Below are positions 46,650 through 47,618 of a DNA stretch of 64,000 nt, piece after piece. The stretch comes from Nitrospinota bacterium. GTDB taxonomy: Bacteria > Nitrospinota > Nitrospinia > UBA9942. Position numbers and translations under genes: made by a program. A model generated the notes under the pieces. That model ran no database searches and was not told the DNA's origin. It saw only the letters and a list, made by a program, of their open reading frames with translations. Each line of letters starts with the position of its first letter. The stretch's first letter is position 1. The stretch covers positions 7,855-71,854 of the forward strand of contig JACQBS010000051.1 in NCBI GenBank assembly GCA_016194325.1, written 5' to 3'.

Positions 46650-47618
46650 ATGAACAGAAAAATCAGAAGACAGAAGACAGAAGACAGAAGACAGGCTTCT
46701 TGTGTCTTGAATCTTGCCGCTTGCTTCTTGATCCTTATATTTTCACTTTCACTTACACTCACACTGACACTTACTTCACTAGTCTGGGCAGGAGGAGGAG
46801 GTTCTTATGATAAGGGCAATGAGATGGTTCTTATACCAGAAGGGGTATTCTTAATGGGGAGCAAAGAAGATGAGGGGAGAATTGGTGTAGATGTGGGTGT
46901 GGACGAATTCCCCCAGAGAGAGGTCAATCTCAAGGCATTTTACATAGATAAATATGAGGTCACTGTGGGGGCGTACAGAAAATTTGCAAAGGGACCAGGT
47001 GAAGAAGAAAGAAAATTTGCAAAGGATGACAACCCCCTCAATCCCCCTTTGTTAAGGGGGACTAAGGGGGTTGTCTCACCTTCAATTCTTCTTATCGGGG
47101 GGCTAACGGGTGAAAGGGCGAGAATGAAGAAGATGAGGATTCCAATATCGGATGACGATTTTCCTATGAGCGATGTAAGCTATATAGAGGCAGAGGCTTA
47201 CTGCAAATCAATGGGGAAAAGGCTTCCCACCGAAGAGGAGTGGGAGAAGGCAGCCAGAGGGACAGATGGAAGAATCTGGCCATGGGGTAATAAGTTTGAG
47301 GCAGGGATGGCGAATACCTTAGAGTCTAAAGAAAACGGGACAATACAATCGGGGAGTTTTCCAACCGATGTAAGCCCGTATAATGTTTATGATATGGCAG
47401 GTAATCTGATGGAATGGACATCTTCATGGTATGAACCGTATCCGGGAAGCAAGATAGAAAGGCCTCAATTCGGTAAGGGGTATAAGGTCATGAAGGGTGG
47501 TACATGGAGTGCACCGTCAATACCCTTTTCCCGTGCGGCTTACAGACATCCTGTTAGACCTACCGAAAATAACCATAGCCACCGTTATGGATTTAGATGT
47601 GCAAAAGATGCAGGATGA
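46650..47618 (+). CDS. Secreted FGE-sulfatase-fold protein (catalytic Cys pair absent)
   Basis: The leader MNRKIRRQKTEDRRQASCVLNLAACFLILIFSLSLTLTLTLTSLVWA is built from (CAGAAGA)4, (NNTCTTG)5 and (LT)n. FGE-family motifs: MVLIPEGVFLMGS, YIDKYEVTVGAYRKF, VSYIEAEAYCKSMGKRLPTEEEWEKAARGTDGRIWPWGN, YNVYDMAGNLMEWT, GFRCAKD. Confidence 0.8.
   Translation: MNRKIRRQKTEDRRQASCVLNLAACFLILIFSLSLTLTLTLTSLVWAGGGGSYDKGNEMVLIPEGVFLMGSKEDEGRIGVDVGVDEFPQREVNLKAFYIDKYEVTVGAYRKFAKGPGEEERKFAKDDNPLNPPLLRGTKGVVSPSILLIGGLTGERARMKKMRIPISDDDFPMSDVSYIEAEAYCKSMGKRLPTEEEWEKAARGTDGRIWPWGNKFEAGMANTLESKENGTIQSGSFPTDVSPYNVYDMAGNLMEWTSSWYEPYPGSKIERPQFGKGYKVMKGGTWSAPSIPFSRAAYRHPVRPTENNHSHRYGFRCAKDAG
47028..47075 (+). repeat. 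Full-length 48-nt G5/C5 double palindrome inserted in frame in FGE-like CDS
   Basis: In gacaaccccctcaatccccctttgttaagggggactaagggggttgtc the outer stem is gacaaccccc/gggggttgtc and the inner stem is tccccctt/aaggggga. It encodes DNPLNPPLLRGTKGVV. Partial copies lie at 16989..17020, 37693..37725, 43771..43791, 44494..44536 and 48595..48624. Confidence 0.9.

Follow-up and report, generated by a model that had tools for sequence, protein, structure and literature searches.

Repeat units and their host genes in the window

The window analysed here is a stretch of 64,000 nucleotides from a contig of a Nitrospinota bacterium (JACQBS010000051.1) and contains, as hosts of a short palindromic repeat or as paralogues of such hosts, four genes for FGE-sulfatase-domain proteins (PF03781; at 16665, 17654, 46650 and 47608), three genes for PD40/TolB-like proteins (at 36440, 42136 and 44474) and a rhodanese gene. 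The most conspicuous repeat is a 48-nt palindrome with G5 and C5 runs, GACAACCCCCTCAATCCCCCTTTGTTAAGGGGGACTAAGGGGGTTGTC, in the FGE-like gene at 46650; it occurs once in the window and in none of 100 shuffled sequences. A sequence-only reading of this DNA had described a family of one full copy (47028–47075) and five partial copies of this palindrome. The window sequence corroborates the six members and their positions by exact matches, and the core CCCCCTTNNNNAAGGGGG is found six times compared with 0.01 occurrences expected from shuffles. The ranking of the copies, in contrast, has to be reversed. All six share an oriented unit composed of the hairpin CCCCC-TTAAYAAA-GGGGG, a spacer of 2–5 nt and the arm GGGGGTTGT, the ends of the unit being TTA(G/T)T-CCCCC and GGGGGTTGT. 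The loop is asymmetric and reads TTTRTTAA in the two minus-strand copies (47028 and 16989) and, as its reverse complement, TTAAYAAA in the other four. A profile hidden Markov model (HMM) built from 139 copies of other genomes and run on the window gave strong oriented matches to exactly these six copies, each scoring far higher in its assigned orientation, and a faint seventh match near 43961. Thus, judged by orientation and HMM, the supposedly partial copies are the standard form of the unit and the 47028 copy is an unusual, double-armed variant with an extra arm, ACAACCCCC, on the opposite side of the hairpin.

The 47028 palindrome is, in other words, a non-autonomous solo copy of a short, oriented repeat that forms a hairpin and here has arms on both sides. 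It equals a right end plus a left end with one hairpin in common, and it may have originated by conversion between copies, since in contig L124 of a related organism the arm-plus-hairpin form at the same site keeps host sequence in the place taken by the window's second arm. Folding of the 48-mer as single-stranded DNA predicts an interrupted 19-bp hairpin (−20 kcal/mol, z = −6.6); standard units fold only into the inner 7–8-bp hairpin. This duplex hairpin is the favoured fold. The G-quadruplex or i-motif potential previously suggested for the G5/C5 runs is graded as weak: the G5 runs number two in the 47028 copy, alongside two C5 runs, and three in the 44494 copy, and a quadruplex is unlikely to form because a unit offers only two G-runs on each strand, fewer than the four or more G-runs (or C-runs) on one strand that define a candidate. 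A search of the window against Rfam yielded no family at gathering score and only weak, generic miRNA/snoRNA hairpin matches at the element (E above 0.01), and a literature text search with the literal unit sequence returned only chance primer matches.

Four of the five standard-type copies lie within coding sequences and the 48595 copy in the leader of ATG 48628, as the coordinates confirm. Translation in several frames, initially described for at least three of them, indeed occurs, and the number is four, two per orientation. Of the six frames, four are free of stop codons, since a TAA closes one frame in each orientation; the window makes use of all four, which give the peptides PLNKGG, SPLTKG/PPLIKG, PPLLRG and PFIKGE. 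Five or six copies of the window are inserted in frame in four different, unrelated genes, which is a defining trait of the Rickettsia palindromic elements (RPEs), and large proteins of Brocadiaceae, Nitrospirae and Planctomycetota also contain the unit. The 44494 copy separates the MNRKK n-region of a signal peptide from its hydrophobic core. ATG 48628 is the likely start of the rhodanese protein (MRRVALILTLTLTL...), and the G5 run of the 48595 copy occupies the Shine-Dalgarno position in front of it, with the same geometry as upstream of the DUF559 genes discussed below; the rhodanese orthologues have no unit at this site and start with MNRK further upstream. The features are compiled in Table 1.

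Table 1. Repeat units and related features of the window (strand of the repeats as assigned from loop orientation).
Feature	Position	Strand	Composition, context and product
Double-armed copy	47028..47075	-	ACAACCCCC, spacer, C5-loop-G5 hairpin, spacer, GGGGGTTGT; HMM score 48.8 on minus strand, 23.6 on plus strand
Product of 47028 copy	in frame in FGE-like gene 46650-47618		encodes DNPLNPPLLRGTKGVV, residues 127-142
Standard unit (arm + hairpin)	16989..17020	-	FGE-like gene 16665-17531; encodes DNPLTPFIKGE
Standard unit	37693..37725	+	PD40/TolB-like gene 36440-39985; encodes SPLTKGDRGLS
Older unit with decayed arm GGAGGTTGTT	43771..43803	+	PD40 gene 42136-44403; encodes IPLNKGGQEVV
Probable seventh, decayed copy ACCCCCTTTACAAAGGGTG	43958..43977	-	PD40 gene 42136-44403; encodes GGLTPFTKGE; weak HMM match plus sequence/translation
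About 1.5 tandem units (G5TTAGT, hairpin, ATTGA, G5TTGTT)	44494..44538	+	signal-peptide region of PD40 gene 44474-46636; encodes VRGLVPLNKGGLRGL
Standard unit	48595..48625	+	2-nt gap to ATG 48628 of rhodanese gene
Host gene	46650..47618	+	secreted FGE-sulfatase-domain protein; P0001 (from a Nitrospinae metagenome-assembled genome) 100% identical
Different hairpin repeat AGTGTCAAAG.../...CTGACACT	18065..18136	+	equivalent region of paralogue 17654-18697; outside the G5/C5 family

The host genes belong to a conserved cluster for a secreted module that is syntenic between the window (36440–51355) and contigs L121, L124 and L126; in these four related genomes it comprises three to four PD40/Tricorn-like genes, at least three FGE-sulfatase paralogues and two rhodanese genes. 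Small genes of multi-copy type are interspersed among the secreted-protein genes of the window (10926–11306, 18721–19131 and 35873–36403); the types seen are a GxxExxY protein (TIGR04256) and a four-helix-bundle protein (TIGR02436) directly after an FGE-like gene, and the open reading frame (ORF) at 35873 resembles by eye a Uma2-type endonuclease, with no NCBIfam match. A Uma2 gene (PF05685) is inserted between the rhodanese genes in L121–L123.

Filled and empty sites and the FGE-like loop

Comparison of the window with syntenic contigs of related organisms (L121, L124, L126, L216 and L031) revealed filled and empty versions of the same sites. At 47028 the element is present in the window, L031 and L124, in the latter as arm plus hairpin only, and is lacking in L121, L126, L216 and the proteins P0003–P0008. 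Since close orthologues of the host genes are devoid of it, the element is an insertion, in agreement with its initial description. Relative to L216, 50 nt stand in place of 11 nt, and the net length changes of the insertions are +39 nt, as here, and +42 nt. The 16989 unit is absent from the orthologues P0017, P0021 and P0026, and related copies occur in P0009 and P0012. The 37693 site is occupied by the G5/C5 unit in the window, by a long GTGTCA-type hairpin in L124 and by a (TCCGAAA)n repeat in L126, and it is free of repeats in L121. The 43771 copy has decayed counterparts in L126 and L121 and none in L124, and at the 44494 and 48595 sites each orthologue carries a different hairpin repeat. 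The L124 orthologue of the 47608 gene harbours, in another loop, a full palindrome of 49 nt with 98% identity to the 47028 copy, and a further unit copy in its signal peptide; in L126 the signal peptide of the corresponding protein contains a 44494-like copy. Filled and empty orthologous sites are therewith available for the 47028, 37693, 44494 and 48595 copies as well as for the 49-nt copy of L124, and independent assemblies (L031, L124 and L125) concur on the insertion. Such presence/absence variation among orthologues at positions tolerated by the fold is likewise characteristic of RPEs. A target-site duplication is not definable at the solo insertions because the sites themselves are hypervariable.

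The contig L031 (JACRGN010000152, Nitrospinota NC_groundwater_1752) deserves a separate remark. Compared with window positions 43600–48800 it is 99–100% identical around the 43771 and 47028 copies and only ca. 80% identical around the 44494 and 48595 copies, where the gene 5' ends carry hairpin repeats. This mosaic points to recombination, hypervariable 5' ends or a chimeric assembly.

The elements of the 16665 and 46650 proteins occupy the same inter-motif region, and the corresponding region of the third paralogue (17654) contains a different hairpin, as had been noticed at the outset. This SVKESESQSVKVKNTDTDT hairpin, of which a second copy sits in another loop of the same paralogue, shows that the inter-motif region tolerates inserts. 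When the loop was measured as the number of residues between F112 and P172 in an alignment of 109 homologues, its length ranged from 16 to 71 residues with a median of 28, most homologues being free of the element; the G5/C5 peptide was present in 5 of the 109 and other repeats in about ten. In the 46650 clade the loop has a baseline of 46 residues and extends to 59–60 with the element. In the 16665 clade, with a baseline of 34 residues, versions of 39–71 residues contain the G5/C5 peptide or another repeat, for instance TEDRRQK or TDTDTDT. An AlphaFold2 model based on the 109-sequence alignment reached a mean predicted local distance difference test score (pLDDT) of 82.5 and more than 90 in the core of the fold; a model from 21 sequences (mean pLDDT 49) was not usable. 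Residues 115–168 are of low pLDDT, and the element residues 127–142 are modelled as coil with values below 50, outside the well-predicted core. Length variation and model thus mark the region as a permissive excursion. The same peptide encoded by non-palindromic DNA was not encountered among the homologues: those bearing the peptide use palindromic DNA, as in L124, and the others do not contain it.

The further proposal that the loop serves as a dedicated cassette site is not supported. Other loops also harbour the unit, which follows WLNEK in the L124 orthologue of the 47608 gene and GDGG in P0019, for instance; it is likewise found in signal peptides and PD40 proteins, and across phyla it is mostly extragenic. 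Because of these other locations, the simpler reading of the loop "hotspot" is a tolerance filter and not a cassette mechanism.

Other repeats of the same gene cluster may be mentioned at this point. The heptamer GGGGCAA is repeated five times at ca. 37620–37655 of the window, and equivalent coding loop sites contain (GTCATCA)n in L121 and (TCCGAAA)n in L126; these coding heptamers could act as contingency loci, as the gain or loss of one heptamer shifts the reading frame. Hairpins of 6–7-nt tandem repeats (GTGTCA.../...TGACAC) are present at gene 5' ends (17654–17800, 36440–36540, 40089–40160, 42136–42250, 44474–44580, 46650–46790, 47608–47700 and 48628–48690) and between genes (39995–40068, 44400–44462 and 49491–49568). 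They translate into SVSVS..KK..LTLTLTL, corresponding to the n-region and hydrophobic core of a signal peptide, and (LT)n cores recur in at least ten ORFs. At equivalent gene 5' ends the orthologues in L031, L121, L124 and L126 contain a different repeat hairpin.

Distribution of the unit and association with DUF559 genes

An exact pattern scan with 27 specified bases over one genome per species (596 Gb), for which ca. 5e-4 chance matches are expected by our own estimate, identified the unit at 120 or more loci from more than ten phyla. Among the matches listed, the hosts comprise Nitrospinota, Nitrospirota, Brocadia and other Planctomycetota, Glassbacteria, Calditrichota, Bacteroidota (including a 4.07-Mb Ekhidna chromosome and a 6.2-Mb contig), Ignavibacteria, Desantisbacteria, Firestonebacteria, Desulfobacterales and others. 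The flanks of the units vary and the sub-families are lineage-specific; the coupling of loop orientation to the side of the arm holds for 30 of 31 copies not chosen by the search pattern. About 80% of the copies among the matches listed are outside long ORFs. Frames of at least 120 residues, which cover 83% of the sequence, contain 33 of 139 copies. Coding insertion as a peculiarity of the Nitrospinota was rejected, the in-ORF fraction being 5/22 there and 21/117 elsewhere. The orientation of the units relative to flanking genes displays no strong bias. A function of solo units as ribosome-binding-site or leader modules was likewise rejected, as 20 gene starts lie within 60 nt and the mirror control gave the same number. 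With only eight exact matches in IMG/VR, phages are improbable as the principal vector.

Several loci of Brocadia and other Planctomycetota (L007, L018, L036, L043, L047, L048, L061 and L104) contain doublets consisting of an inverse hairpin CCCCCTTTnnTAAGGGGG, ca. 10–12 nt and a standard unit, followed in several cases by a conserved TTTTCACCnGCATTTG; in layout these doublets look like a right and a left end, placed side by side, of the DUF559 gene unit described in the following.

Clustering of 563 neighbouring ORFs around 139 units yielded no transposase-like family, and the largest clusters are ordinary response-regulator signalling proteins. The only family directly adjoining units in several phyla is DUF559 (PF04480), represented in three phyla by a protein of ca. 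120 residues (E 1e-31 to 1e-37). The architecture of these loci is hairpin, spacer, G5TTGT, 0–40 nt, ATG...stop, ACAAC5, spacer and hairpin, such that the gene is bracketed by two inverted units; in one clade of small DUF559 genes the unit thus constitutes the terminal inverted repeats. Database DUF559 proteins show read-through peptides as in the window (...RGTKGVV-MKIHYNPKLK, ...NNPHTPFVKGE and ...HNPLNPPLGKGDLK), and the DUF559 relatives named are from the same phyla as the unit matches. As a safeguard against selection bias, 80 DUF559 genes were sampled from metagenomes by a protein motif alone. A hairpin-plus-G-run unit lies at most 110 nt upstream of 53 of 78 DUF559 genes (26 of the G5 type, 21 of a related "G4TC" type and six others), and in 46 of 73 cases a same-strand unit ends 0–40 nt before the ATG. 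On the opposite strand, 25 units have their start at the stop codon or immediately behind it, and 11 of these overlap it (ACA ACC CCC TAG). Left and right repeats are always of one type, with seven G5/G5 pairs, seven G4TC/G4TC pairs and no mixed pair. Protein identity is 0.65 and 0.61 within the repeat types compared with 0.52 between them, and the nearest protein neighbour has the same repeat type in 53 of 54 cases. The unit is accordingly associated with DUF559 genes, and repeat type and protein clade co-vary. A Nitrospinae locus (L087) displays the same layout with the G4TC repeat.

Two kinds of observation concern the extent of the gene unit. L142/L143 and L145 share an identical 487-bp unit, their sequences parting precisely where the extended right terminal repeat has its outer end; an extended terminal repeat is found in L142, and L172 has a perfect terminal inverted repeat of 35 nt. 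In addition, the gene unit of L142 is flanked on both sides by the 8-bp sequence AAATTTCT, and that of L129 by an A-rich repeat matching at 7 of 8 positions. In a profile comparison DUF559 matched 3hrl (E 3e-27) and, with a weak score, I-Bth0305I, a homing endonuclease (3r3p, E 1.4e-4), and DUF559 and I-Bth0305I have been placed with Vsr in one PD-(D/E)xK group (PMC3424549, PMC3239194). No literature linking DUF559 (COG2852, YcjD, Vsr-like) with repeats or mobility was found.

The second repeat family, CCCCTC-loop-GAGGGG, spacer and GGGGTGTGT, brackets a sister clade of DUF559 and is never mixed with the G5 type at one gene; loci of this G4TC type include L087 (1041–1394), L157, L168, L177, L181, L182, L185, L190 and others. 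In L116 (6600–7600; Bacteroidales, 6.2-Mb contig) an array of a unit, a DUF559 gene, an interrupted right repeat, ca. 130 nt, another unit and a degenerate DUF559 fragment suggests a local duplication of the whole gene unit, as the upstream flanks are near-identical.

Origin of the unit and comparison with known systems

On the whole, we regard it as probable that the unit is a non-autonomous repeat resembling repetitive extragenic palindromes (REPs), miniature transposable elements with inverted repeats (MITEs) and RPEs, with DUF559 as likely partner, and that selection retains its coding copies only at tolerant sites. In this scenario the DUF559 nuclease, or the gene unit of ca. 490 bp, would be the autonomous partner that seeds or mobilises solo units, comparable to the relation of the REP-associated tyrosine transposases (RAYTs) to REPs and their doublets (REPINs) or of transposases to MITEs. 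We infer such a mobilisation; possible routes are a nuclease-triggered repair that copies one end or a mobilisation in trans. Copies landing in genes would persist only if their net length is a multiple of three, the frame is free of TAA and the site tolerates extra residues, and once fixed they would decay into ordinary loop sequence. The restriction of coding copies by frame and to tolerant sites is directly seen in the window and its orthologues. The threefold filter would explain why copies cluster in the FGE-like excursion, in loops of PD40 proteins and where the n- and h-regions of signal peptides meet, and also why other repeats accumulate at the same places. Going further, DUF559 genes within hairpin-plus-G-run inverted repeats might constitute a previously undescribed selfish family across phyla, i.e. 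a nuclease-driven analogue of the RAYT/REPIN system with gene-less solo repeats in hundreds of genomes that time and again became part of secreted proteins, in their loops and signal peptides. DUF559 would thereby also obtain a first proposed function; this extended proposal is put forward tentatively and with somewhat less than even confidence.

Several observations weigh against a DUF559-driven insertion. A nuclease of ca. 120 residues has no known strand-transfer or joining activity, which renders a transposase-like role of DUF559 speculative, and no target-site duplication is seen at 47028, the sole well-resolved solo site. Direct repeats flanking the gene unit are limited to the one exact and the one A-rich case mentioned above. 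Among the sampled DUF559 genes 25 of 78 are without a recognisable upstream unit, no DUF559 gene is present in the window or in ca. 150 kb of related Nitrospinota loci, and the DUF559 gene ycjD of E. coli K-12 has no annotated repeats nearby. The association could alternatively have arisen from DUF559 genes landing beside existing repeats or using them as leader and terminator. Moreover, in the core domain the window protein is equally similar to P0003, which has no element (93% identity), and to P0002, which has one (90%), such that loss, recombination or repeated gain must have occurred.

A classical REP/REPIN system, in which the units are mobilised by a RAYT (an HUH Y1 transposase) encoded elsewhere and the DUF559 link is incidental, would account for units of 30–48 nt that form hairpins, are oriented, mostly extragenic and in part arranged as inverted doublets (PMC3116915, PMC3733652). 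However, neither unit end bears a GTAG or CGTC tag, no recurrent Y1-like neighbour emerged from the 563 ORFs, which represent unit neighbourhoods and not whole genomes, and the gene bracketed by inverted units is DUF559, the clades of which co-vary with the repeat type. REPIN–RAYT systems are also mostly inherited vertically within lineages (bioRxiv 10.1101/2022.05.22.493013), in contrast to a unit core common to many phyla, and we consider this origin rather improbable. Slightly harder to defend, and thus unlikely in our view, is a structural module that is useful to the host and not selfish, its hairpin acting at the RNA or DNA level, for instance as a terminator or insulator, a translational pause in secreted proteins or a Shine-Dalgarno donor; it would be kept for this role and spread by recombination and horizontal transfer. 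The strong hairpin, the placing of the G5 run as a Shine-Dalgarno sequence in front of DUF559 genes and ATG 48628 and the several copies in signal-peptide regions are in line with it. Nevertheless, no Rfam match and no orientation bias were observed, gene starts downstream of solo units equal the control (20 each), and the presence/absence in close orthologues and the decay of old copies speak against a conserved function of the sites.

A site-specific cassette or diversification mechanism aimed at FGE-like and PD40 loops could be deduced from the different inserts found between the same conserved boundaries across orthologues at the 37693 site and in the FGE-like loops, from the element-free P0003 interleaved with element-bearing relatives, and from an Avd-like four-helix-bundle gene beside an FGE-like gene, which with 27 bits scores below the cut-off of 80 of the Avd model. 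We judge it very unlikely, since the same elements occur in many unrelated places, mostly extragenic, and the sites vary in sequence even without an element. No recombinase, reverse transcriptase, template repeat or conserved junction motif was found, the window having had no search aimed at reverse transcriptases, and the C-terminal regions, which are the typical variable regions of diversity-generating retroelements, are conserved among orthologues. The interpretations of the peptide as an ancestral functional motif or of the palindrome as an assembly artefact draw on recurrence only and can practically be dismissed. They are refuted by the absence of the peptide from most homologues, by DNA that is read in four frames and also found between genes, and by independent assemblies of different samples with the element at the same site.

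For DUF559, a domain of very wide occurrence that lacks an assigned function, the link to the repeat provides the testable hypothesis that the nuclease recognises the hairpin/G5TTGT unit; if true, the REP/RAYT paradigm would gain a second class of enzymes. The survival of palindromic repeats in frame, known mainly from Rickettsia, is here extended to uncultivated, free-living members of the Nitrospinota, Nitrospirota and anammox Planctomycetota, and a single element family is common to several phyla. For annotation purposes, the unit accounts for recurrent PLNKGG, PFIKGE and PPLLRG peptides in metagenomic protein predictions and for false extensions at their N and C termini, and it marks protein positions that tolerate inserts of 10–16 residues.

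Among the known systems, RPEs, QMITE1 of Coxiella and intragenic enterobacterial repetitive intergenic consensus elements are likewise multi-copy palindromes inserted in frame, with the peptide at fold-compatible positions and variable among orthologues (PMC10969869). RPEs are, however, ca. 100–150 bp long, restricted to Rickettsia and without a known partner gene; the unit measures 30–48 nt, occurs in more than ten phyla, is situated to ca. 80% outside long ORFs and forms the terminal repeats of DUF559 genes. The relation is presumably one of analogy and not of membership, given these differences in size and host taxa. Translated palindromic DNA also links the unit to PARCELs, which are described as horizontally distributed among distant microbes, and to coding palindromes of Nematomorpha mitochondria (PMC2996958, PMC6649704); those palindromes are described as longer and protein-coding in both arms by design, whereas the coding copies of the unit are a minority by-product of a mainly extragenic repeat. 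Homing endonucleases of the Vsr-like (EDxHD) kind, for example I-Bth0305I, and free-standing homing endonuclease genes are related in the catalytic domain (PMC3424549), DUF559 being a predicted Vsr-like PD-(D/E)xK enzyme, and are comparable as small, selfish-looking nuclease genes in varied genomic contexts. Unlike them, DUF559 has no intron or intein context, is with ca. 120 residues too short for an N-terminal NUMOD or helix-turn-helix DNA-binding region, and has hairpin inverted repeats on either side, with solo repeats devoid of a gene being present in large excess.

As in MITEs, the unit shares terminal inverted repeats with a putative autonomous element, since it forms the ends of the DUF559 gene units; the parent of a MITE encodes a recognised transposase (DDE, HUH or serine), whereas the sole protein encoded here is DUF559 of ca. 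120 residues. Because no transposase is involved, the unit is not a classical MITE. With REP/REPIN–RAYT systems it has in common the short oriented hairpin, the many solo and doublet copies and a bracketed small nuclease gene whose clade co-varies with the repeat type (PMC3116915, PMC3337134), and it conforms to the description of REPs as imperfect palindromes of 20–40 nt that are mainly extragenic and present in many copies. It deviates in that the bracketed gene encodes a PD-(D/E)xK Vsr-like DUF559 protein and not an HUH Y1 transposase, in the core being nearly identical across phyla and not lineage-specific, and in the extended terminal repeats and possible 8-bp flanking direct repeats of some DUF559 units. 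As the GTAG/CGTC end tag of REPs (PMC3733652) is missing from the unit consensus and the gene flanked by inverted repeats in the unit neighbourhoods is DUF559 and not a RAYT, the unit falls outside the REP family proper; in its effect on genes it is RPE-like, and in its architecture it resembles the REP/REPIN–RAYT system.

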